Shown here piece by piece: positions 1,733 to 63,411 of a DNA stretch of 64,000 nucleotides. A model generated the notes under the pieces. The model saw nothing but the letters and a program-made list of their open reading frames with translations, had not been told where the DNA came from and did no database searches. A program made the translations under genes and the position numbers. The stretch's first letter is position 1, and each line of letters opens with the position of its first letter. This DNA is from an uncultured delta proteobacterium (GTDB taxonomy: Bacteria; Myxococcota; Myxococcia; Myxococcales; Myxococcaceae): NCBI GenBank assembly GCA_963771175.1, contig CAVYSY010000021.1, forward strand, positions 32,001 to 96,000, written 5' to 3'.

Positions 1733-1890
1733 GGCGAGCTGTTCCGGGGAATGCGTGAAGAAGACCCAGGGAGTCACAGCATTCGCCGTGCCAGGAGGGG
1801 CTCCAGCGAGGAGCCCCGCCCGGTGCGCAAACCTTGCGCTCCCCTGTCCCTGAAAGTGGGGATGAGGAGCCCGGGCGCGCAAGATGCGCG

Positions 1891-3394: not shown

Positions 3395-5491
3395 GTGCGA
3401 AGACACGGAACGTTGGGGTGGGGATGTCTGGCGTTACTGCTCATCTCCTGCTCGGCGCATCGGCCCGCCAGCGAGGTCTCCCGGCAAGCCGAGACCGGAC
3501 GGAGCCTGCGCGCGCGCATCTACCTGGCGAAGGGCGAGGCGGCGGTCGACTCGCGGCAATGGGGTCTGGCGGCAGCGTATTTCGCGGCCGCCCGTGTGGA
3601 GCAGGACTCGCTCGCGGCGCAGTGGGGTCATGCCTGGGCGACGAGCCATGCCTCCACCCAGCTCTGGACGAAGAAGTTCGAGGGCTCCGTCCTCGCCACC
3701 GCCTTCTCCCCGGATGGCCGGGTGCTGGCCTCGGCCGGATACGATTCCATCATCCGTCTCTGGGACGTGAGCCGCGGTGAGCTGCTGGCGGAACTCAAGG
3801 GCCATACGGCCGAGGTGCATGCCGTCGCCTTCTCCCCCGACGGTCGAGTGCTGGCCTCCGGAGGCAGGCCGGGAGAGATTCGAATCTGGGACCTGAGCCA
3901 GGGTCGGCAGGTGGCCCTGCTCGAAGGCCACTCGGACGTGGTGCGCGGGCTGGCGTTCTCGCCGAGCGGGAAGCAATTGGCCTCCTGTGGCGTGGACAAG
4001 ACGGTCCGTGTCTGGGACGTCGGCACCGGGACCGAGCGGATGCGGTTCGACCACGACGAATATGCCATCTCCGTCGTGTTCTCCGGTGATGAGCGACAGC
4101 TCCTCTCGACGAGCATGGACCGGACCGCCCGGCTGTGGGACCTGGATGCACGCAAGGAGCTGCGCCGCCTCCTCGGACACGAGGAGAAGGTGGAATCGGG
4201 TGCTTTCTCTTCGGATGGGCAGCTCGTCATGACCGCGGCGAGCGACCACACGGTCCGGTTCTGGAGCGCGCGGTCCGGACAGCTCGTCAATGTCCTGAGA
4301 ATCCCGGGCGGTATCGCGAGCGTCGCCATCGATCCCGGGTTCCGGCTCATCGTCGAGGCGGGATGGGATGGCCGCGTCCAGCTCGTCGATGCTCGCAGCG
4401 GGGAACTCCTCGATCGTCTGGATGCACATCACGCGATGACGATGGCGGTGGCCCTGTCTCCGGACGGTCGCACCTTCGCTTCTGGTGGAAGGGACGGCTC
4501 GTTGCATGTCTGGTCCCGACCCGAGGCTCCCGCCGAGGTCGTCCTCCGAGGCCATCAGGTCTGGATCGAGGCATTGGCGTTTCCCGAGGAGCAGGCGCTC
4601 GTTTCAGGTGCGGAGGATGGCTTGCGCCTATGGGGCCTCTCGGGAGGGAGCGCACTGGAGCCGAAATCGTTCGAGACGGGGAGCTTCTCCCTCGCGGTGA
4701 GCCCGGATCGAAAGCTCATCGCGGCGGGTGCGCCCGATGGAACGGTGCGCGTCCTGGAGGCCAGCTCGGGCCGGCAGGTGCTCGGCCTCTCCGGCGTGGC
4801 GGGCTCCGTTCGGGGCCTGGCCTTCGCACCCGATGGGAAGACCCTCGCGGCGGGCGGGGAGCGCGACGTCATCCTCTGGTCGCTGCCCTCCGGCTCCGTC
4901 CTCGGGCAGCTCGCGGGACACACGGGGAAGATCTGGTCCCTGGCCTTTGATTCGACGGGGAGCCGCCTCGCCTCCGGCAGCTCGGACGGTACCGCGCGGA
5001 TCTGGGATGTGAGTCGCCGTCAGCAGCTTCGACAGCTCGACACGGGGGGCACGGTTCGAGCCGTTGCCTTCACCCCCTCCCATGGCCTCCTGGTGACGGC
5101 GGGCATGAAGCAACCCCTTCGCCTCTGGGATGCCGCGGACGGCCGTCTGTTGAAGGAGCTGGACGATGGCCCTGTCGGCACCCTCTCCATGTCCTTGTCA
5201 CGGGACGGGCGGTTCATGGCCTCGGGCGGAATGGACCTGCTGGTGAAGGTCTGGAGCCTTCCTTCCGGCGAGCGGATGGGGGAGATCCCCGGTCATCAGG
5301 GGATGCCCACCGCCGTGGCCTTCTCGCCTGGAGCCTCGACCCTGGCCTCGGCGGGAGCGGACAGGACGATCCGCCTGAGCAGGATTGAAGGCATCGTTCA
5401 TCCGATGTCGCCCGAGTCGGCGCTCGCGGAGGCGCTGAGCCGATACGGGCTCACCCGGGAGGAAGAGCGGTTCCTCATCCAGTACCGCTGA
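3395..5491 (+). CDS. WD40-repeat protein (about 14 repeats), probable lipoprotein
   Basis: Repeated GH..V..VAFSPDG..LASGG.D.TVR.WD units. An in-frame GTG at 3395 gives a signal peptide ending LALLLISC. Start is inferred. Confidence 0.88.
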
Positions 5492-5772
5492 CGGAGGTCC
5501 GTGCTCATCTCCATCACTTCGCACCGAGGTCCAGCAATGCTCGAACCTCGACCTCGGTACCGAAGGTGCGGGCGCGAGCCAGCGGAGTCTGGCCGTTACC
5601 CTGCTCGGCACGTCCTAGCCGGCTGGGTGACGGGTGGGCGCGAGGCTCGCGTGGTGGGTCCAGGCTGGTTGCCCGAGGTCCGCTCAGCCTCCGGCGCTTT
5701 CCGCCGAAGTCATCCAATTGCTTCGCCGGTCCGTAGCGGGAGTGAAGACACCGCACTCCATGAGGACCGACC

Positions 5773-7341
5773 ATGCCGAAGTTGAACCCACTGGCCGCCA
5801 TCGCGGTCCTGTCGACGGCGACCCTGGCATTCCCGCTCGGGGCTCTCGCCGCCAGCCACCGCGAGGCACCCATCACCGCCTTGGACCACAAGGCGGACAT
5901 CACCGACTTCTTCGCCTTCGTCAGCTATGACAAACCCGACAGGGTCACGTTCATCCTGGACGTGGACCCGCTGTTGGAGCCGGCGAACGGACCCAACTAC
6001 TTCCCGTTCGATCCCAACATCCTCTACACCATCAAGATCGATAACGACCACGACGCCATCGAGGACGTCTGGTTCGAGTTCCGCTTCAACACGGAAATCC
6101 GCGCGCCCAACGTCTTCACGGGCTACGTGGGCGCGGGCTCGGGCATCGCCGCCCCGGGCAACTCGCCCCCGCCGATCGCGCCCGGAACCCCCGTCGTGCC
6201 GCCGGCCATCACCGCCCTGGACGGGCCCGGCTCGGAGGGGCTCAGCCTGCGCCAGCAGTACACGGTGACCCTGGCGCGCCGCGGTCCGGGCAACTCCGTG
6301 AAACGCACCCGCCTGGGCGAACGCATGCGCCTGTTCGCGCTGCCGAGCAACGTCGGCCCGCGCACCATGCCCAACTATTCCTCCCTGGCGAAGCAGGCCC
6401 TCTTCCGGGTGGGCCAGGACGTCAGGGTCTTCGCCGGCACCGTGGAAGATCCGTTCTGGATCGACCTTGGCGCGGCCTTCGACTCCCTGAACTTCCGCGC
6501 CACCGGTTTCAAGGTGCCCGGTGTGCTGTCGGACGCCCAGGACGCCGACGACACCCGCAACTTCGCCAGCGATGCCGTCTCCGGCTACAACGTGAACGCC
6601 ATCGCCATCGAGGTGCCCATCTCCCTGCTGACCCGCGACGGCAAGCGGCACGCACCCACCGAGCCCGCCGCCACGCTCGGCACCTGGGCCACGACCTCTC
6701 GCCAGCGTGTCTCCGTCCGCCGACACCCCGCCGAGCGGAACGGCGACGCCCGGGACGCCGACGTCTGGCGGCAGGTGCAGCGCATGGGCAACCCGCTCAT
6801 CAACGAGCTCCTCGTGGGCACTGGCTCCAAGGACCGCTTCAGCACCGACCAGCCCAGGAACGACTCGCGGTTCGCGCCCTTCTTCCTCGACCCCTTGCTG
6901 GCGCGCGTGCTGAACGCCGTGTATGGGATTGACATCCCCACCCCGCCCCGCACCGATCTGCTGCCACTGGTGACCTACGCGCCGCCCATCGCGGCCGCGG
7001 GCACCCCCGCTGGCCCGGTCGCCGATCTGCTGCGCTTGAATACGGGCGTACCGCCCACGCCGGTGGGCAAGCAGAAGCGCCTGGGCCTGCTCGCGGGCGA
7101 TCCCTCCGGCTTCCCCAACGGGCGCCGGCTGGGCGACGACGTCACCGACATCTCCGCACGCGCGGTGGCGGGTGTGCTGAACCCCCAGTTCAACAAGGCC
7201 CCCAACAACCGCATCGGCGACGGCGTCAACACCAACGACGCCCCGTACCAGAGCACCTTCCCGTACCTCGGCCTCGCGTGGGACGGCCGCAACCGCCGCC
7301 ACATCGACCCGGGTGAGGTGGGAGGCGGTCCCGTCAACTAG
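5773..7341 (+). CDS. DUF4331 domain secreted protein
   Basis: Signal peptide followed by ASHREAP...ADITD. Also contains VFAG..EDPF..DL, QVQRMGNPLINE and GFPNGRRLGDDVTDI. Confidence 0.9.
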   Translation: MPKLNPLAAIAVLSTATLAFPLGALAASHREAPITALDHKADITDFFAFVSYDKPDRVTFILDVDPLLEPANGPNYFPFDPNILYTIKIDNDHDAIEDVWFEFRFNTEIRAPNVFTGYVGAGSGIAAPGNSPPPIAPGTPVVPPAITALDGPGSEGLSLRQQYTVTLARRGPGNSVKRTRLGERMRLFALPSNVGPRTMPNYSSLAKQALFRVGQDVRVFAGTVEDPFWIDLGAAFDSLNFRATGFKVPGVLSDAQDADDTRNFASDAVSGYNVNAIAIEVPISLLTRDGKRHAPTEPAATLGTWATTSRQRVSVRRHPAERNGDARDADVWRQVQRMGNPLINELLVGTGSKDRFSTDQPRNDSRFAPFFLDPLLARVLNAVYGIDIPTPPRTDLLPLVTYAPPIAAAGTPAGPVADLLRLNTGVPPTPVGKQKRLGLLAGDPSGFPNGRRLGDDVTDISARAVAGVLNPQFNKAPNNRIGDGVNTNDAPYQSTFPYLGLAWDGRNRRHIDPGEVGGGPVN

Positions 7342-8819: not shown

Positions 8820-9062
8820 CTACTTCTCCCGGAGGGCCGTGAGGACCTCACGCGCGGCGGCCACGGAAGAGGCCGGGTTCTGGCCGGTGATCAGCCGCCC
8901 GTCATGCACCGCGAAGCTGCTCCACAGGGGCCCTCGCTCGTAGCGGGGCCCCAGGTCGCGCAGCCGCGTCTCCAGCGGGAAGGGCACCAGCTTGTCGAGC
9001 TTCACCGCGCGCTCCTCCTCGTCGGAGAAAGCCGACACACGCTTGCCGGCCACCAGGGCCAA
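8820..9062 (-). pseudogene. 3' remnant of a DJ-1/PfpI (type 1 glutamine amidotransferase-like) gene
   Basis: LVAGKRVSAFSDEEE..VPFPLETRL..DGRLITGQNPASS is the C-terminal third of this family. The catalytic-Cys region and N-terminus are absent. Confidence 0.8.
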
Positions 9063-12182: not shown

Positions 12183-13148
12183 TCAGGCCACCGAGGGCAC
12201 GGGCTTCTCCTTCACGTCCGCCCTCGGTGCGCCCAGCGCGAGCCCCGCCGCGCTCAGCCGCACCAGCACCACCCACACCACGTCCGCCAGCAGCAGGTGC
12301 ACGAGCTGCATCCACACCGGCGCCAGCAGCACCAGGTTCACCAGCCCCGCCACCAGTTGCAGCGCGTACAGCACGCCCAGCAGCCTCGCGGACTTCCGCA
12401 CCGCGGGCGAGGGCCGCAGCCGCGCCACCATCGTCGCCGAGAACACCACCAGCGCTCCCACGGCCACCGCCAGCACCGGGTGCAGCACCCGCAGCCGCAG
12501 CAGCACGTGCGCCGTGGGCGACACGTCCTGGCTCAGCCCCTCGGCGAGGCTCGTCGCCGGGAAGAGCGTGTCCCCCAGCGCCGCGATGGCGCCGCTCACC
12601 CCGAGCACCAGCACGCCCACCAGGCTCCCCGCCACCAGCCACCCCGTCAGCCCCTGCCGCCTCAGCACCACCCGCTCCCGGCCCTCCGCCCACCAGCACG
12701 TCAGCGCCATCGCGCCCACCAGCAGGAACGTGTTGATGAGGTGCGCCGCCATCCACCAGGCCCGCGCGGTGGAGGGGTTGTCCGCCACCATCTTGAAGAG
12801 CACCAGCCCCGCGCCCACCGCCGCCTCCGTCAGCATGAAGAAGAGCGAGGCCCCCGCCGCCTTGCGCACCGGGTGGCCCTTGGCGTGCGCCCGCAGCCCC
12901 CACACGCACAGCACCACCGCCAGCACCAGCGCCAGCCCGCTCGTCAGCCGGTGCGTGTACTCGATGAGCGTCTCCACGCTCGGCGCGCGCGGCACCACCT
13001 CGCCGTTGCACACCGGCCAGTGGTCTCCGCACCCGGCGCCCGAGCCCGTGGCGCGCACGTAGGCGCCCCACAGCACCACGGCCAGGGTGTAGACGAGGGT
13101 GAGCCAACTGAAGATGCGGAAGGAACGGGAGGACACGGAGGAGCTCAT
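12183..13148 (-). CDS. ctaA: COX15/CtaA family heme A synthase
   Basis: GAYVRATGSGAGCGDHWPVCNG, IEYTHR, about 8 TM helices with conserved His residues. Confidence 0.88.
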   Translation of the reverse strand: MSSSVSSRSFRIFSWLTLVYTLAVVLWGAYVRATGSGAGCGDHWPVCNGEVVPRAPSVETLIEYTHRLTSGLALVLAVVLCVWGLRAHAKGHPVRKAAGASLFFMLTEAAVGAGLVLFKMVADNPSTARAWWMAAHLINTFLLVGAMALTCWWAEGRERVVLRRQGLTGWLVAGSLVGVLVLGVSGAIAALGDTLFPATSLAEGLSQDVSPTAHVLLRLRVLHPVLAVAVGALVVFSATMVARLRPSPAVRKSARLLGVLYALQLVAGLVNLVLLAPVWMQLVHLLLADVVWVVLVRLSAAGLALGAPRADVKEKPVPSVA

Positions 13149-13286
13149 CGGCGGGCAGGTCCCCGGACCAGGGGGCACGGGTGGCTCCTCCCTAACGCAC
13201 TTCGCCCCCGACCGCCGCACCCGCGTGCCGCCGCTCCGGGCGCCTGCTCCCTTCTCCCGCCTGCCTTGTCGGTGTTCCTCCTTCCC

Positions 13287-13393
13287 TATCCAGCCGGGTC
13301 TCTGGATACCCCCCGCCGCGCTTTGGATGGGCCGCTGGAAAGGCCTGCCTGCCCTCGGCGGCGTCCTGGAAAGGGATTGGATGATTTCCAATC
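13287..13393. promoter_or_regulatory. Putative upstream activator sequences (YTGGAW repeats and two 7-bp inverted repeats)
   Basis: TATCCAG-N8-CTGGATA (13287-13308) and GATTGGA-N5-TCCAATC (13375-13393). TGGA at 13303, 13324, 13336, 13367 and 13378, roughly in helical phase, 25-130 bp upstream of a sigma54 promoter. Confidence 0.5.
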
Positions 13394-13414
13394 GGCCCCC
13401 AGGGTCCGAAATCG

Positions 13415-13432
13415 TTGGCACGCGAACTGCTA
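13415..13432 (+). promoter_or_regulatory. Sigma54 (-24/-12) promoter
   Basis: TTGGCACGCGAACTGCTA: GG(13417-18)-N10-GC(13429-30), near-consensus TGGCACG-N4-YTGCW. Predicted TSS about 13442. Confidence 0.75.
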
Positions 13433-13441
13433 CATGTTGAC

Positions 13442-13599
13442 TCGATAACGATTTCGAGTTCGGGCGCCTCGGTGCCTGAAGCGCTCCGTGGGTCGGGGGA
13501 CCCCCCCACCTCGGCCCGCGAGCGCATCTTTTCGCGGTTGTCGTCGTAGGTACGCACCGCGGGTCGGGTTCGCCCCCTGTCCTGGCCCGCGGTGTTCTT
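13442..13599 (+). ncRNA. Candidate sigma54-dependent small RNA, three stem-loops with C-rich loops (Pxr-like organisation)
   Basis: SL1 13459-13480 (9 bp, 2 G.U). SL2 13481-13525 (~17 bp, 3 G.U, loop GACCCCCCCA). SL3 13554-13595 (15 bp, 3 G.U, loop UUCGCCCCCUGU) followed by UCUUAU. No credible + strand CDS. Confidence 0.62.
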
Positions 13600-13626
13600 A
13601 TGTCCTCGGCTCGCGGCTCCGGGCGC

Positions 13627-16599
13627 TCAGCCCGTGATGCGCAGCCGATCCGCCCCCAGCACCGCCGGAAGCGAGCCGAAGGCCAGCGAGCGCTCGATGA
13701 CGTTGCGCAACTCGCGCACGTTGCCCGGCCAGGAGTGCGCGGTCAGCGCGGCCAGCGCGTCCGGCCCGAGCCGCGGCGGCTCCTGGCCCTCGGGGGTGAG
13801 GTGGCGGACGAAGTGGCGCGCCAGGGCGAGCACGTCCTCGGGCCGCTCGCGCAGCGGAGGCACCCGCACCGGCACCACCTGCAGTCGGTAGTAGAGGTCC
13901 TCGCGGAAGCGGCCCTCGCGCACCAGTTGTCCCAGGTCGCGGTGCGTGGCGGCGATGACGCGCACGTCCACCTGCACGGGCCGCGTCTCGCCCAGGGGGA
14001 AGATTTCACCGTTCTCCAGGAAGCGCAGCAGCTTGGGCTGCACCTCGAGCGGCAGCTCGCCAATCTCGTCGAGGAAGAGCGTGCCCCCGTGGGCGGCGCG
14101 GATGACGCCCGGGTGGTCCGTGGCCGCGCCGGTGTAGGCGCCGCGCCGGTGGCCGAAGAGCTGGCCCTCGAAGAGCTCGCGCGGCACCGCGGCGCAGTTG
14201 AAGGCCACGTAGGGCCTGTCCGCCCGCGAGGACAGCTGGTGGATGGCGCGCGCCACCACCTCCTTGCCGCTGCCGGACTCGCCGGTGACGATGACGGTGG
14301 CGCGCGAGGCGCTCAGCCCCGCAAGCTCCGTCTTCAGCCGCCGCATGGCGGGCGAGGCGGCGATGAAGCCGGGCACCTCCGGCGTGCCCTCGGGCTCGCG
14401 CGTGGGGGAGGGCGCCGCCTGGGCGAAGCCGCGCAGCACGGCCACCTCCAGCGCGAAGCCGGCCAGGCGCGCCAGTGCGGTCATCAGGGCCCGTCCGTCC
14501 GCGGGCAGGGGTCCGGCCACGCCCAGGCGCAGCCGGCGGCCACACCCGTCGCCGAACTCCACCCACTCGCTGGCGGGCACGCCGTCCTGGCCCAGCAGCG
14601 GCGTGGCGTGGCCCTGCGAGTCCAGCTCTTCCAGGCGCGGGGAGCGGCCGGGGAAGAGTCCCTCCAGCACCGCCACCAGCTCGCGCTGGATGAGGGGAGC
14701 GCCCATGCCGCGCACGGCGAGCCGCTCGAAGGGCACCAGCAGCGACTCGGCGCCCAGCCGGGGCGTGGCGTCCGAGGGCACCGTCTCCGGCGCCCGCGCC
14801 TGGAAGTGCTCCGGGCCGGAGTTCGGGGGCGGGGTGATGCCGTGGCGGCGCAGCTCCTCTTCACTCTGGTGGAGCCGCGCCGCGGCGCCGGGCTCGCCCC
14901 AGGCGCGCGCCACCAGGGCGAGCGTGCGGCGGGTGAGGGCGCTCTCCGCGACATCTCCCGCGAGGGTGAAGGTGGCCAGCGAGGCCTCCAGCTTCTCGCG
15001 CGCCTCGTGCGAGCGGCCCTCGCGCGCGAGCAGCACGCCCTTGTGGCGGTGGAGCATCGCGGTGCACCAGGCGGAGGGGAGCTGCTCCATCATGGCGCGG
15101 GCCCGACGCAGCGCCGCGCGGGCCTCGGGGAGTTGGTTGGCCGCGGCGCGCGCTCCTACCTCGGCGATGACGCAGTCGCGCCGCAGGTAGGGCCAGCCGC
15201 CCACTTCCAGGGCGCGGGCGTGGGCGGCGGCGAAGCCCTCCGCGGCCCGTTGCGCGTGGCCCTCGGCCCAGTCCGCCAGCGCCTCCACCCAGCACCCGTA
15301 GACGCGGGTGAGGGGCCGCTGGATGGGGCCGCTGTATTCCGAGAGCCGGGCCGCCAGCCGGCGCAGGTCCGCGTAGCGGCCGGTGAGATACAGGAGGCGG
15401 GCGCGCTGCACCGCGAGGTGCTGGGGCGTCCATTTCAGCTCCTCCACCACCGCGTCTCCCTCGTCCAGCACCGCCTCGGCTTCGGCGAAGCGGGCCAGCC
15501 GCAGCAGGGCATCCGCCTCCGCGCGCACGGCGAAGATGAAGGAGAAGCCCCGGGTCATCCGCCCGCCCCAGGCCGCCTCCCGGGCGCGGCGGATCAGCGC
15601 GAGCGCCTCGTCGGGCTCGCACGCCTCGTCCAGCCGACGCTGCGCGAGGAAGGCGAGGGCGCGCGCCTCGAGGAAGGCATAGCCCATGCGCGCCGCTCCC
15701 TGCGCCACCTCGCGGAAACGTTGCGTGGCCAGCGCGGCCTCGCCGCGGATGGCGGTCTCGTGCGCGATGACGTCCGCGGCCATCAGCCGCAGCGCGGGGT
15801 CCGACACCCCGGCGAGCGACTCCTCCATGTGCCCGGACTGGCGGGCGATGAGCTCGGGGGCAACCAGGTTGAAGGCCGCGGTGGCCTCCGCCACGCGCAG
15901 CATGGCGCCCGCCTCCGCACGCGCGAAGAGGGCGTGGTGCAGCAGCGCCTCGGCGCGCGCCACGTGGACGTTCGCCTTGCCCGCGTCGAAGTGCCGGCCG
16001 TCCGGCGAGGCGAAGAGGTTGGCGGCCATGACATGGACGAACACCTCGGCGGACCCGGGCAGCAGGCCCGCCTCCGCCTCGGCCAGGTGGGGCAGCAGCA
16101 GGGAGAAGGCGCGCCGCACGTCCTCGGAACCCCAGCGGTACACGTAGGCCAGGCTCACCGACGCCAGGGCGCGCGCTCCCACGGAGCGCAGCTCGCCCGA
16201 GCCCAGCAGTGCCATCAGGGCGTCCTCGGCGGCCCGCCACTGCGCCCGCTGCAGGAGCGCCACGCAGGTGGAGAGCTGGGCTCGCTCCTCGCGCGAGAGC
16301 TCCTGGCGGAGCACGTTCTGGCCCAGTCGGGCGGGAGGAGGGGGCAGGAGCGGTTGCCCGCCCTCGGCGAGCTGGCGCAGCGCCTGCATCACCCGGCCTC
16401 TCGGCCGGCGGGCTTGCGGAGCGGCTGGCGGTAGCTCCCAGCGGTATACGGTGAGGGGCGTTACTCCGAGCTGCCGGGCGAAGGCCGCGCGGCTGAGTTC
16501 TCCACGCAGCGCGCGAATCGCCTCGGGTCCGAACCCCTCTGCTCCAGTCGTCGCCACCTGTTCATCCCCTTGCGTCCCCACCACCCGCGCTGCCTTCAT
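13627..16599 (-). CDS. Atypical sigma54 enhancer-binding protein: N-terminal XRE HTH, TPR-like helical region, C-terminal AAA+ domain
   Basis: [28 protein letters not shown] (HTH); [43 protein letters not shown]. Ends about 24 aa later with no Fis-type HTH. Confidence 0.9.
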
Positions 16600-16709
16600 C
16601 GATCATTCGGCGCGGAAGGGCAAACTCTGTGGGTCCGCGAACAAGCGGGCGTGGCGCATCCATCCCGCCAGTGCGCGGAGGGGAATGCGAGGAGTGCCCC
16701 CTCGTCTGA

Positions 16710-18123
16710 CTACTCGTTGGCCTGGGCCTGCGCCCTCAGGGGCGTGGTGCTCTGGGCGGACACCAGGCGCACCGTCTTGATGTTGAGGAACTCGAGGATG
16801 CCGTGGCGCGCCAGCTCGCGCCCGTGGCCCGAGGCCTTCACCCCGCCGAAGGGCAGGCGCGGGTCGCTCGCCACCATGCCGTTGACGAACACCGAGCCGG
16901 CCTCCAGCCCGTCGATGAAGAGGCGCTGCTCGGCCTCGTCGCTCGTCCACACCGAGGAGCCCAGCCCATACGGCGAGTCATTGGCGATGCGCAGCGCGTC
17001 CTTCGCGTCCTTCGCGCGGAAGAGGACGGCCACCGGGCCGAACATCTCCTCGGTGTAGGCGGGTGAGCCCGGGGGCGGGTGGGCCAGCACGGTGGGCGGG
17101 TACCAGAAACCGGGCCCGGAGGGCTTGAGGCCTCCCAGCAGCAGCTTCGCTCCCGCGGCCACGCTGCGCTCCACCTGCTCGTGCAGCCCGCCGCGGATGG
17201 CCTCGGTGGCGAGCGGCCCCACCTCCGTCTTCGGGTCCGCGGGGTCTCCCACCACCGCGCGGCGCATGCGCTCGACGAAGCGGCGCTCGAACTCGGCGTA
17301 GATGGGCTCGGTGGCGATGAAGCGCTTGGCGGCGATGCAGGACTGGCCGTTGTTGATGAGGCGGGCCTTCACCGCCGTCTCCACCGCCGCGTCCAGGTCC
17401 GCGCTCGGCAGCACGACGAAGGGGTCGCTCCCGCCCAGCTCCAGCACCACCTTCTTGAGCTGCTGGCCCGAGCGCTGCGCCACGTCGCGGCCCGCGCCCT
17501 CGCTGCCGGTAATCGTCACCGCGCGAATCGCGCGGGTCCTCGATGAGCCGGCGCGCCCCCTGCACGTCCACCAGCAGCGTCTGGAAGGCGCCCGGGGGGA
17601 AGCCCGCGCGCAGGAAGAGCTCCTCGAGCGCCAGCGCGCACTGGGGCACGTTGTGCGCGTGCTTGAGCAGCCCCACGTTGCCCGCCATCAGCGCCGGGGC
17701 GGCGAAGCGCACCACCTGCCAGAAGGGGAAGTTCCACGGCATGATGGCCAGCACCGGCCCGAGCGGCTGGTAGCGCACGAAGCTCGTGTCCGGCGCGGTG
17801 TCCACCGGCTCGTCCGCCAGGAAACGCTCGGCGTGCTCCGCGTAGTAGTGGCAGGCCGTGGCGCACTTGCGGGCCTCGGCGCGCGCGGCCTCCAGCGGCT
17901 TGCCCATCTCCTCCATCATCATCCGCCCGTAGCGGTCCGCCTCGGCCTCCAGCAGCTCCCCCGCCCGGCGCATCCACCCGGCGCGCTCGGCGAAGGAGGT
18001 GTGGCGGAACGTGCGGAACGTCTCCTCGGCCCGCCGCAGCTTCGTCTCCACCTCGTCCTGCGAGTGGGCGTCGAAGGTGCGCAGCGTCCGGCCAGTGGTG
18101 GGGTCGATGGTGGCGAAGGCCAT
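16710..18123 (-). CDS. NAD(P)-dependent succinate-semialdehyde dehydrogenase family (frameshift at about 17525)
   Basis: [61 protein letters not shown]. Confidence 0.92.
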
Positions 18124-20863: not shown

Positions 20864-21337
20864 TTAGAGGACGAGCCCCAGGGCCCGGGCGTCGTGGATG
20901 ATTTTCAGCCCGTCCACCTTCAGCCGGTGGGTGAGGAAGGGGGCGATGGTGTCCCCGTGCTTGTGCAGGCGCGCGTAGTTGTTGTCGTAGATGCGCGTCA
21001 CGATGAGCTGGGCGGAGGCGATGATGCGCTGCAGGTTGTGCTGCAGCTCGTTGCCCTCCATGACCAGGTGGAGCTCGCAGATGTACTTGCGGTGGTCCTC
21101 CAGCATCTTGAAGAGGGCCTTGCGCTGCTCGCCGTTGGGCACCCGCGCCTTGGGGGCGGTGGTGACGACGCAGACGAGCTGCTGCCGGTAGGCCTCGTAG
21201 GAGTCCCGGAAGCGCATGGTGACCGTCTGGAGCTCCAGGGCGTTGGGCGGCTGCTCCCAGCGGATGAAGAAGACCTTGTTGATGAGACCCGTCTTGAAGT
21301 TCGGGGCGGACGCGAGATTCGGGGCGGTAGCGAACAT
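20864..21337 (-). CDS. Hypothetical protein (possibly STAS/SEC14-like fold)
   Basis: GGAG RBS, strong host codon bias, globular 157-aa sequence. Fold guess is from sequence pattern only. Confidence 0.7.
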   Translation of the reverse strand: MFATAPNLASAPNFKTGLINKVFFIRWEQPPNALELQTVTMRFRDSYEAYRQQLVCVVTTAPKARVPNGEQRKALFKMLEDHRKYICELHLVMEGNELQHNLQRIIASAQLIVTRIYDNNYARLHKHGDTIAPFLTHRLKVDGLKIIHDARALGLVL

Positions 21338-21577: not shown

Positions 21578-22321
21578 ATGCGACTCGCCGAGCTGCGGGA
21601 GCGCGTCCCCAAGGTGATGATGGGGGCGGACGGCATCGGCCTGCTGGCCACGCTGCTGACCCTGCTGACGGTGGGGCTGGGCTTCATCGCGCTGTCGGAC
21701 GAGGTGCGGGAGAAGGACACCCAGCACCTCGACGAGCGCGTGCTGCTGTCGCTGCGTCGAGCGGGCAACCCGGAGGTGCCGATCGGCCCCCATTGGCTGG
21801 CCGAGGTCGCCCGGGACGTGACGGCGCTGGGCAGTGTGTCGGTGCTGACACTGGTGGTGTGCGCGGTGAGCGGCTTCCTCGTGCTGGTGCGGCGCTGGCG
21901 GACGCTGGCCCTGGTGGTGGGCTCCACGTTGGGCGGGGCGCTGGTGAACGCGCTGCTCAAGAGCCTGTTCGCCCGGCCGAGGCCCACGGTGGTGCCGCAC
22001 CTCACCGGAGTGCTGATGGAGAGCTTCCCCAGCGGGCACGCGATGCTGTCGGCCATCGTCTACCTGACGCTGGGCGCGCTGCTGGCGCAGCTCACCGAGC
22101 GGCGGTGGCTCAAGGCGTACCTGGTGGGCGTGGCGCTGCTGCTCACGCTGTTCATCGGGCTGACGCGCGTGTACCTCGGTGTGCACTACCCGACGGACGT
22201 GCTGGGCGGGTGGATGGCGGGGCTGGCATGGGCGCTGCTGACGGCGCTGGTGGCGCGCGCGGCCAAGCGGCGCAGCCCCGCACTGCGCGAGGAATCGCGG
22301 GGAGAGACGGCTCCGTCATGA
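21578..22321 (+). CDS. PAP2-family membrane phosphatase
   Basis: LKSLFARPRP, SFPSGHA, TRVYLGVHYPTDVLGG. Confidence 0.92.
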   Translation: MRLAELRERVPKVMMGADGIGLLATLLTLLTVGLGFIALSDEVREKDTQHLDERVLLSLRRAGNPEVPIGPHWLAEVARDVTALGSVSVLTLVVCAVSGFLVLVRRWRTLALVVGSTLGGALVNALLKSLFARPRPTVVPHLTGVLMESFPSGHAMLSAIVYLTLGALLAQLTERRWLKAYLVGVALLLTLFIGLTRVYLGVHYPTDVLGGWMAGLAWALLTALVARAAKRRSPALREESRGETAPS

Positions 22322-62203: not shown

Positions 62204-63411
62204 ATGTTCCTGCCCTTCCTCTACGAGTTGCGGCGGCGCGGAGTGCCGGTGGGCGCGCAGGAGGCGCTCGCGCTGGCGGAGGCGCTGAAGGCGGGGCTGC
62301 ACGACAGCTCGCTGGACGGCTTCTACCACGTGGCGCGCGCGCTGCTGGTGCACGCGGAGACGCACCTGGATGCCTTCGACCAGGCCTTCCTCTCACACTT
62401 CAAGGGCATGGAGGGCTCGGGGCAGCAGCTCGCGCAGGAGCTGCTCGAATGGCTGAAGGACGCGCGCGAGCGGCGTGAGCTCACCCCCGAGGAGCGCGAG
62501 CTGCTGGAGCACTTCGACGTGGAGGAGCTGGAGAAGCTCTTCCAGGAGCGCCTGGACGAGCAGCGCGAGCGGCACGACGGCGGGACGAAGTGGGTTGGGA
62601 CGGGAGGGGCCTCGCCCTTCGGGAACTCGGGGCACCCGCGCGAGGGCATCCGGGTGGGCGGCGAGGGCGCCCAGGGCGGTGGCGGCCGCATGGCGATGAA
62701 GATCGCCGGAGCGCGCAAGTACCGGGCTACCGGGGTGACGTGGTGCTGGACACGCGGCAGCTCGCGGTGGCGCTGCGCAAGCTGCGGGCCTTCGCTCGCG
62801 AGGGCGTGGCGGACGAGCTGGACGTGGAGGGCTCCATCGCCGCCACGGCGAAGAACGCGGGCGAGCTGGAGGTGGTGACGCGCCCGCCGCGCCGGCCCAA
62901 CACGCGCGTGGTGCTGCTGATGGACGTGGGCGGCTCCATGGACCCGTACGCGCACCTGGTGAGCAAGCTCTTCTCGGTGGCGAAGCAGGCCACGCACTTC
63001 AAGGAGCTGCGCACCTACTACTTCCACAACTGCGTGTACGGACGCGTCTTCGACTCGCCACACATGGTGGGGGGCCTCAGCGTGCCGGACCTGCTGGGGC
63101 AGGTGGGGCGCCACCACAAGCTGGTGGTGGTGGGTGATGCGCTGATGGCGCCGTACGAGCTGACGATGCGCACCAACTCGGAGGGCCGCTACGACCCGGA
63201 GAACGGGAAGGAGGGGCTGGTGTGGCTGATGGAGCTGGCGCGGCACTTCGAGCGCAGCGCCTGGCTCAACCCGGAGCCTCCGCAGACGTGGCGGGGCAAC
63301 ACCATCCATGCGGTGAAGAATGTTTTCGACATGTTCCCCCTGACGGTGGAGGGACTGGGCGAGGCGGTGGCGCACCTGACGAAGGGGCGCATGGTGCGCG
63401 GTCGCCGATAG
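62204..63411 (+). CDS. VWA-domain (CoxE-like) partner protein (frameshift at about 62725)
   Basis: GGTKWVGTGGASPFG, ELDVEGSIAAT, LLMDVGGSM, YFHNCVY, VGDALMAPYE, WLNP. Confidence 0.9.

Follow-up and report, generated by a model that had tools for sequence, protein, structure and literature searches.

A candidate sigma-54-dependent small RNA family with C-rich loops, encoded beside an unusual enhancer-binding protein gene in Cystobacterineae

Several sigma-54-dependent small RNAs (sRNAs) are encoded beside the genes of their own activators, as with Qrr1/LuxO, GlmY/GlrR, CrcZ/CbrB, and NrsZ/NtrC. For the myxobacteria, Pxr is the only functionally characterized sRNA in the literature searched, and the mapping of its targets has just begun. 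In the sections of two studies on which we draw here, pxr is described as having a sigma-54 promoter and as lying downstream of nla19/pxrR, the partner of pxrK in a two-component system (PMC5568312, PMC5684412), and in the first of these studies its flanking genes in every species examined are nla19 and one for an NADH dehydrogenase. The same source describes Pxr as an RNA of 108 nucleotides (nt) with three stem-loops and reports tandem pxr paralogues at nla19 in Cystobacter minor Cbm 6 (PMC5568312), and the loop of Pxr stem-loop 1 (SL1) is reported to be essential, with a C-to-A change at its fifth base inactivating the RNA (PMC5568312, PMC5684412). Binding of Pxr near Shine-Dalgarno sequences is reported in the available portion of a preprint (10.1101/2025.09.11.675593). 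Here, we analyze a stretch of 64,000 nt from an uncultured delta proteobacterium of the Myxococcaceae (GenBank assembly GCA_963771175.1, contig CAVYSY010000021.1, positions 32,001 to 96,000 of the forward strand), hereafter called the window, and describe a non-coding RNA candidate in the gap at 13149-13626, between the gene of a sigma-54 activator and ctaA, the gene of a heme A synthase. The locus probably holds an independent structured-RNA gene of about 160 nt that represents a new Cystobacterineae sRNA family, seen in Archangium, Citreicoccus, and Myxococcaceae bacterium GXIMD 01537. We think it reasonably probable that this family is sigma-54 dependent, is activated by the adjacent protein, which combines a helix-turn-helix (HTH), tetratricopeptide repeat (TPR)-like helices, and an AAA+ module, and acts via C-rich loops.

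With the window as reference, we compared 12 related loci from one genome-contig scan, in which the N-terminal 740 residues of the window activator were used as the query. Nine loci are from Archangium (L001 to L009), and the others come from Citreicoccus inhibens (L010), Myxococcaceae bacterium GXIMD 01537 (L011), and a Polyangiaceae metagenome-assembled genome (L012). The "12 sequences" or "12 orthologues" below are the window and L001 to L011, ten of which are Archangium sequences. The gene order activator-sRNA-ctaA is found in 11 of the 12 loci (nine Archangium, Citreicoccus, and GXIMD 01537).

The original prediction, made from the letters of the window, had proposed a near-consensus sigma-54 promoter on the + strand that points into a gap without a credible coding sequence (CDS), and both parts of this proposal hold. 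The promoter, TGGCACGCGAACTGCT, is the sole exact match to the pattern TGGCACGNNNNYTGCW (TGGCACG-N4-YTGCW) on either strand of the 64 kb, where a mean of 0.08 exact matches per shuffle is expected and at least one match occurs in 8 of 100 shuffles. Allowing one mismatch raises the number in the window to 4, versus 2.0 expected, and since this is close to chance, only the exact site stands out. Further one-mismatch matches at 1778-1793 (- strand), 22224-22239 (+ strand), and 62331-62346 (+ strand) have no TGGAW cluster nearby. The strict pattern places the promoter 3' of the activator gene, and on the strand opposite to it, in 10 of the 12 loci, and when any base is allowed before TGCT, C. inhibens is added (TGGCACGCGAGATGCT), bringing the count to 11. 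TGGCAYG and (Y/A)TGCT are retained in these 11 loci, while the 4-nt spacer between them varies (CGAA, CCGA, CCCC, GCCC, CCAC, ACCC, GCCC, CGAG, and TGGG); the stretch of 10 bases from -12 to +1 is also mostly variable, and conservation returns at the predicted start. As for coding potential, each of the open reading frames (ORFs) that overlap 13150-13640 is either short or an antisense read-through, leaving the gap without a credible CDS, and the sense-strand ORFs in the 12 orthologous RNAs vary in frame and length between species, so that there is no conserved peptide.

The region downstream of the promoter has a marked strand-specific fold. The folding energy of 13442-13605 is -90.9 kcal/mol on the + strand (z = -5.36), where none of 200 shuffles is as good, versus -66.9 kcal/mol for the reverse complement (z = -0.82), for which 40 of 200 shuffles are as good; across folds of the window sRNA, the + strand z ranges from -5.4 to -6.0. 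All 12 orthologues show the same tendency, with z from -3.7 to -7.5 on the sRNA strand versus -0.9 to -3.3 on the opposite strand. Furthermore, 7 pair positions are predominantly G.U across species, and since these would be A.C mismatches on the other strand, the strand is fixed. The proposed + strand specificity is thus borne out by the comparison of both strands, and its presence in all 12 orthologues indicates that the hairpins are not simply the terminator of the convergent gene, again as had been suggested.

Three stems with 8 G.U pairs, one bulged C, and no mismatch had been drawn from the window alone, and we recover the same picture on the consensus structure (Table 1), where the window has exactly 8 G.U pairs and zero non-standard pairs and the bulged C falls in SL2. 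The two loop C-runs and the short U-rich tail that had been pointed out are also found, with a predicted unpaired probability in the window of 0.81 for the C7 run in the SL2 loop and 0.96 for the C5 run in the SL3 loop. All 11 long orthologues carry a run of 6 to 8 Cs in the SL2 loop (predicted unpaired 0.65 to 1.0) and a run of 5 to 7 Cs in the SL3 loop (0.74 to 0.96), and the loops are better conserved than the linker. A helix closing the 5' region onto the linker, present in the minimum free energy structure of the window, was rejected, with 71% of alignment cells pairing and two positions mostly unpaired.

Table 1. Features of the predicted sRNA locus, with positions in the window except for the Polyangiaceae gene, which is numbered within locus L012 (UAS, upstream activating sequence; SL, stem-loop)
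Feature	Position	Strand	Description
ctaA/COX15 heme A synthase gene	12183-13148	-	PF02628, E 1.5e-39
Enhancer-like array, putative UAS	13288-13391	+	Seven TGGAW/WTCCA half-sites
Sigma-54 (-24/-12) promoter	13416-13431	+	TGGCACGCGAACTGCT; GG at 13417-13418, GC at 13429-13430
Predicted sRNA, ~161 nt	13442-13602	+	Predicted start 12 nt after the -12 GC; predicted end at the U-rich tail of SL3
Weak 5' hairpin	13442-13457	+	4 bp; in the consensus structure, absent from the list of the original prediction
SL1	13459-13480	+	9-bp stem, YUYG tetraloop (CUCG in the window); 100% of cells pair
SL2	13481-13525	+	16-bp stem, one bulged C, C7 at 13501-13507 in the apical loop; 98.3% of cells pair
SL3	13554-13595	+	15-bp stem, loop UUCGCCCCCUGU, C5 at 13573-13577; 100% of cells pair
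U-rich tail	13596-13602	+	UCUUAUG after SL3; probable terminator end
Sigma-54 activator gene, 990 residues	13627-16599	-	PF00158, E 2.2e-66
HlyD-family membrane-fusion gene (L012)	4635-5873	-	Downstream of TGGCATGGTGGCTGCT

The RNA is conserved in the relatives together with its promoter. Its length is 156 to 163 nt in L001 to L010 and 108 nt in L011. Within Archangium, nucleotide identity to the window is 86 to 90% for the sRNA and 93 to 100% for SL3, next to 84 to 91% for the activator CDS and 86 to 96% for ctaA, and the 204 nt of upstream intergenic DNA reach 62 to 69% in eight of the nine Archangium loci and 84% in the closest one, L001. RNAalifold applied to a MAFFT alignment of 11 sequences gives 44 pairs, 6 of them with compensatory changes. 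A covariance model built from this alignment (R1) was used in a cmsearch over 233,578 nt, i.e., the window and the 12 loci, and yielded 11 full-length matches, all syntenic (74 to 189 bits, E <= 2.3e-16), and a partial match in L011 (28.4 bits). No second copies were found in the window and the 12 loci, the remaining matches being chance-level or the reverse-strand hairpin (12.7 to 18.2 bits for the reverse-strand matches), and L012 gave none.

In the model-fitted alignment of the same size (A4; 11 sequences, 44 pairs, 480 cells), 98.5% of the cells pair, and 11 of the 44 pairs change on both sides, versus 2.0 +/- 1.0 in shuffles, with 0 of 500 shuffles reaching the observed value. When the partners are slid by 1 to 3 columns, the number of both-side changes falls to 1 to 3. 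Both-side changes affect 5 of the 9 pairs of SL1, 4 of the 16 of SL2, and 1 of the 15 of SL3, the other SL3 pairs being invariant (10) or variable on one side (4). In L010, the stem sequence of SL1 is wholly replaced and the hairpin is retained at the same place, and L011 independently keeps a 14-bp SL3, with A-U where others have G.U, A-U, or G-C. Conservation of promoter and stems in relatives, whose absence the original prediction had named as refuting, is thus observed in 11 of the 12 loci, with compensatory changes, and extends to the loops.

With respect to the internal organization of the RNA, SL2 and SL3 resemble each other in both stem and loop (local alignment score 27 versus 14.5 +/- 2.3 in shuffles, with 1 of 1,000 shuffles as high), and in L011, SL3 is aligned to that portion of the covariance model which represents SL2. 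U-rich tails occur 3' of SL2 (AUCUUUUC) and, in most Archangium sequences, 3' of SL3 (UUCUUUUC), and the SL2 hairpin of L010 with its tail satisfies the terminator rule of a simple scan (1 match). Given this likeness and the U-tail after each hairpin, the gene resembles a tandem duplication of a unit of C-loop hairpin and U-tail, which suggests an internal duplication. SL3 with its tail is a probable terminator and second C-loop. As a separate observation, the sRNA 3' end is separated from the activator stop codon by extra DNA in L003 (around 8920-8980, - strand), L006, and L010, and in L003 this DNA ends, on the sRNA strand, in GCGCCGCCCCG followed by T8, which has the look of a back-up terminator and was not called by the simple scan.

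Upstream of the promoter, we observe an array of half-sites that may serve as an enhancer. In the window, the half-sites lie at -154, -139, -118, -106, -75, -64, and -56 from the predicted start, giving 7 in the 230 nt upstream versus a background of 0.6 per 230 nt, the maximum density of the 64 kb. In Archangium, half-sites recur at -57, -65, -76, -96, -108, and about -144, with spacings near 10 to 12 and 20 bp. The proximal pair of half-sites makes up a palindrome, TTGGATGATTTCCAA (13377-13391), with a core, GGATGATTTCC (13379-13389), that does not vary among the 12 sequences and occurs exactly once in each of L001 to L011 and not at all in L012. The only other site in the window that resembles this palindrome, with 3 mismatches, is GTGGATGATTTTCAG at 20894-20908 (+ strand). 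In L012, three copies of GGATGA, spaced 11 and 22 bp apart and forming the sole such cluster in the 14-kb locus, lie in a divergent gap (5873-6027) adjoining the gene of the activator homologue, about 80 to 125 bp upstream of the sigma-54-like TGGCATGGTGGCTGCT, which itself lies 12 nt before the ATG of the HlyD-family gene (Table 1). This suggests that the activator family controls different neighboring targets in different lineages. Together, the conserved synteny and the enhancer-like array, with the parallel in L012, lend indirect support to a link between the predicted sRNA and the adjacent activator.

That the convergent neighbor is a sigma-54 activator, as first read from its translation, is confirmed by Pfam, which assigns PF00158, an AAA+ lid domain, TPR_12, and a weak HTH_28. 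The protein has an XRE-like HTH at about residues 28-67, a long TPR-like region, and an AAA+ sigma-54 module at 746-975 with Walker motifs and the GAYTGA version of the GAFTGA loop. We identified 217 relatives with E <= 1e-10 among 8,000 scored candidates and examined the best 120 of these 217; across these and the window protein (121 in total), the loop is GAYTGA in 43, GAFTGA in 67, and GSFTGA in 7, and 4 have none. Among the matches listed, which include full-length relatives in several groups, identity is about 80% for Archangium/Vitiosangium, 67 to 70% for Myxococcus/Pyxidicoccus, and 40 to 50% for Polyangiaceae and records labeled "Deltaproteobacteria," and the homologue in L012 has 37%. 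The window activator is without a C-terminal HTH and without a receiver domain, and the 93 homologues with the motif WPGN[VI]REL have only 20 to 30 residues C-terminal to it. In 30 family members, HTH_28 is found in 13, HTH_3 in 6, and HTH_8 in 0, and, the AAA+ module aside, conservation in the family is highest in the N-terminal HTH block. The activator thus probably binds DNA via its N-terminus. Comparison of the N-terminal 110 residues with PDB sequences gave nothing meaningful, and in NCBIfam only the AAA+ module is matched, below every equivalog cut-off. The activator start codon is preceded, at a distance of about 60 to 65 nt, by GGATGGATG (16657-16665, - strand), which has the same core as the enhancer-like repeats; this motif is kept in the window and 7 Archangium loci, beside a conserved block CTGTTCGCAG...GTTTGCCCTTC, and may be an autoregulatory site of the activator.

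Compared with Pxr, the RNA described here shares an architecture rather than a sequence. Common to both are a sigma-54 promoter, an adjoining sigma-54 activator gene, a multi-stem-loop form with a U-rich tail, a C-run in an exposed loop, a taxonomic range within the Cystobacterineae, and a history that includes duplication, of whole paralogues in tandem at pxr and probably of SL2/SL3 here. The loop motif GGUUC(G)CCCC(C) is also common to Pxr SL1 and our SL3: using the primer-derived ancestral positions 13-33 and 48-111 of Pxr (Methods of PMC5568312), we find GGTTCCCCCC of 13-33 matched in the SL3 loops of L011 (10 of 10 positions) and L010 (12 of 13), values that only 3 and 2 of 300 shuffles reach. 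The ten Archangium sequences match this motif at 9 of 10 positions, which is not significant (28 to 47 of 300 shuffles), and Pxr 48-111 has no similarity to any of the 12 RNAs (73 to 258 of 300 shuffles score as well). In contrast to pxr, which lies downstream of its own activator gene and is flanked by nla19/pxrR and the NADH dehydrogenase gene, this RNA is convergent with its presumed activator gene and is flanked by that gene and ctaA; the pxr activator is a response regulator with the kinase PxrK, whereas the protein here is a one-component protein without a receiver domain; and Pxr has 108 nt versus about 160 nt here, with no sequence similarity beyond the loop motif. L005 is Archangium minus Cbm 6 (Cystobacter minus being a synonym) and carries this RNA between ctaA and a 990-residue HTH-TPR-AAA+ activator gene, so that in strain Cbm 6 the pxr cluster at nla19 exists alongside this RNA at ctaA. 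The two are therefore separate loci, as the original prediction had maintained. Its label "Pxr-like" stands for the architecture (sigma-54 promoter, multi-stem-loop RNA, C-containing loop) and for one loop motif and does not stand for overall sequence homology. Membership in the Pxr family was accordingly rejected on sequence (a loop motif of 10 to 13 nt only), locus, and activator type.

Rfam holds a Pxr model, and a scan of the whole window at the gathering thresholds of Rfam 15 gave 0 matches; a permissive scan (E <= 10) of 13100-13750 returned only chance-level MIR1883 and IRES_mnt. With Qrr1, GlmY, CrcZ, and NrsZ, the locus has in common a -24/-12 promoter, upstream activator sites, which are putative here, and an adjacent gene for the cognate, or here presumed, activator, whereas the RNAs are unrelated in sequence and structure, consistent with the lack of an Rfam match. 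LuxO, GlrR, CbrB, and NtrC are two-component response regulators with a C-terminal HTH, in contrast to the N-terminal HTH and TPR region found here. Among bacterial enhancer-binding proteins (bEBPs) at large, the activator is like NtrC, PspF, and PexR in its AAA+ sigma-54 interaction module and Walker motifs, with GAYTGA in place of GAFTGA, and differs in that a C-terminal Fis-type HTH is absent and the likely DNA-binding domain is an XRE-like HTH at the N-terminus, behind which TPR-like helices extend over about 550 residues. PexR (MXAN_1565) is described as another activator, with a GAF-AAA+-HTH layout, in the sections available from PMC12754779, which also describe sigma-54 as vital for M. 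xanthus, and dyad or repeated upstream bEBP sites as lying more than 50 bp from the promoter. Repeated putative sites at such distances are also present here.

Our interpretation builds on what is observed: the promoter and the synteny are conserved, the structure is strand-specific and covaries, the C-loops are exposed and conserved, and a conserved array lies upstream. From these observations, we infer that the RNA is transcribed, which protein activates it, with what targets it pairs, and what role it has in physiology, along the following lines. Sigma-54 RNA polymerase would bind the -24/-12 promoter at 13416-13431, and the neighboring one-component HTH-TPR-AAA+ enhancer-binding protein would activate it, its N-terminal HTH binding the helically phased TGGAW/GGATGA array 55 to 155 bp upstream. 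The transcript would start near 13442 and fold into SL1, a structural tetraloop hairpin, and into SL2 and SL3, which would be duplicated hairpins, each with a C5-C8 loop run and each followed by a U-rich tail. Because a U-rich tail follows both SL2 and SL3, termination could give forms of about 90 nt and about 160 nt. The exposed C-runs may then pair in trans with G-rich mRNA sequences, mainly Shine-Dalgarno regions, as proposed for Pxr.

Several points weigh against this interpretation. A single divergent sequence, L010, contributes most of the both-side changes; Archangium, where SL3 is nearly invariant, accounts for ten of the 12 sequences, and invariant pairs are uninformative; and since A4 was fitted to the model, its pair counts lean toward the model structure. 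The orthologue in L011 has 108 nt and is without the 5' hairpin, SL1, and a recognizable SL2, and given this reduction to SL3, the conserved core may be SL3 alone. The simple terminator scan gave 0 matches in the window region and in L003, and the U-tails are short; the scan rule requires a loop of 3 to 8 nt, and since the SL3 loop is longer, SL3 could not be called. The activator is assigned to the sRNA promoter by adjacency and motifs only, and the promoter match in L012 has 2 mismatches, with 33 of 200 shuffles giving as many matches. As for targets, none was found, apart from a single cis lead that pairs the 9-mer of the SL3 loop with the ctaA leader.

This lead bears on the main rival explanation, in which the RNA would act mainly in cis, as a sigma-54 transcript antisense to the activator-ctaA intergenic RNA and the 3' untranslated region of the activator, uncoupling or tuning the expression of ctaA or the activator either through interference with transcription or through formation and cleavage of a duplex, instead of regulating distant mRNAs. 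We regard such a mainly cis-acting RNA as unlikely. It is true that the sRNA lies antisense between the co-directional activator gene and ctaA in 11 of the 12 loci and in two families, that the absence of a U-tailed hairpin on the - strand after the activator stop codon makes read-through into the sRNA region plausible, and that in L004 the activator ORF ends at 8955, directly beside position 8954, where the 3' end of the sRNA is predicted. The SL3 loop 9-mer TTCGCCCCC occurs elsewhere in the window only at 13201-13209 (+ strand), in the ctaA leader region, so that the ctaA leader (- strand) carries its complement just upstream of the Shine-Dalgarno sequence GGGAGGAG. On the other hand, a pure antisense role needs no strand-specific covarying structure with exposed invariant C-loops, the complement in the ctaA leader is exact in only 4 of the 12 sequences, and the best duplex sites differ between species and are not conserved in position. 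The ctaA leader was thus set aside as a target of the SL3 loop, being unsupported by so few exact 9-mers and by inconsistent duplex sites. Cis and trans roles are mutually compatible.

The remaining alternatives concern the origin, the mode of action, and the very existence of the RNA. A diverged Pxr paralogue that moved to another locus and another activator would account for the common sigma-54 promoter, multi-stem-loop form, U-rich end, and Cystobacterineae restriction, for the GGTTCCCCCC match in L011 and L010, and would fit the known duplication of pxr as described in the part of PMC5568312 cited above. We consider such an origin quite improbable, given the dissimilarity of Pxr 48-111, the non-significant loop match in Archangium, the different locus and activator type, and the absence of an Rfam match at E <= 10. 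The RNA might also titrate an RNA-binding protein to which its duplicated hairpins offer identical C-rich loops, on the model of multi-motif RNAs that sequester CsrA/RsmA or Hfq. The apparent duplication of SL2 and SL3 with the same stem and C-run loop and the higher conservation of loops than of linker would suit this role, which we nevertheless judge still less probable: two motifs are few for a sponge, and we know of no C-run-binding regulator in these bacteria. Furthermore, the precedent of Pxr, as given in the portion available from the preprint (10.1101/2025.09.11.675593), is base-pairing near Shine-Dalgarno sites. We give hardly any credence to the explanation that there is no RNA gene, the promoter match being fortuitous and the hairpins only a terminator or structural element of the convergent activator gene. 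SL3 does start 32 nt beyond the activator stop codon, and the hairpin can form on both strands, as the reverse-strand model matches of 12.7 to 18.2 bits indicate; however, the - strand fold, with z = -0.82, is no better than shuffles and turns G.U into A.C, there is no U-tract on the - strand, the terminator scan gave 0 matches, the promoter is kept with a variable spacer in 11 of the 12 loci, and the 5' region and SL1, distant from the stop codon, are also conserved.

Both ctaA and the activator gene lie on the - strand. With this co-directional pair on either side, the + strand sRNA converges with the activator gene, diverges from ctaA, and is antisense to the intervening gap. In 11 of the 12 loci, all except the Polyangiaceae locus L012, ctaA is found 3' of the activator gene and shares its strand, and in the same 11 an aldehyde dehydrogenase gene lies 5' of the activator gene. 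The start of ctaA is ambiguous, being either the ATG at 13148 or a GTG at 13178 located 6 nt after GGGAGGAG (- strand), and most Archangium loci are missing the approximately 30 nt that in the window separate the ctaA Shine-Dalgarno sequence from the ATG. The aldehyde dehydrogenase gene of the window (16710-18123, - strand) is split over two frames, with 16978-18123 matching positions 9-193 of Pfam Aldedh and 16710-17519 matching positions 210-461. Both parts are found in the 11 related loci, and the coordinates in L001 place them in one frame, which points to a frameshift or sequencing error near 17520 in the window.

With respect to earlier work, the literature searched holds no paper on a second myxobacterial sigma-54 sRNA, and the Myxococcus sRNA papers in it deal with Pxr, bar one review and one preprint. 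The review mentions, in the part available, non-coding RNAs numbering in the tens from M. xanthus RNA sequencing data (PMC8538405). An orthologue in M. xanthus may already figure as an unnamed published sRNA candidate. In that case, the novelty of our finding would be lower and the confidence that the RNA is real would be higher. The family is another case of a known design, the sigma-54 sRNA next to its activator, and introduces no new principle; its interest is real for the myxobacterial field and moderate overall.

If the proposed sigma-54-dependent, C-loop sRNA family is real, it would provide a sibling RNA of Pxr with which shared or competing targets can be tested, and a defined module of promoter, enhancer, and activator that comes with a candidate DNA motif and whose activator is unusual in its N-terminal HTH. 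The covariance model is ready for annotating Cystobacterineae genomes with an RNA that is absent from Rfam 15. In a far-reaching version that we put forward tentatively and think rather doubtful as a whole, this would be a second, so far undescribed sigma-54 sRNA of fruiting myxobacteria, carrying the C-run seed of the Pxr SL1 type in duplicate and responding to an input other than that of Pxr, through a one-component HTH-TPR-AAA+ sensor assembled at a GGATGA enhancer with 11-bp phasing. Being a sibling of Pxr with overlapping Shine-Dalgarno-proximal targets, it might then bring a second signal into the decision between growth and development and, being antisense to the activator-ctaA transcript, might itself be linked to the respiratory supply of heme A.

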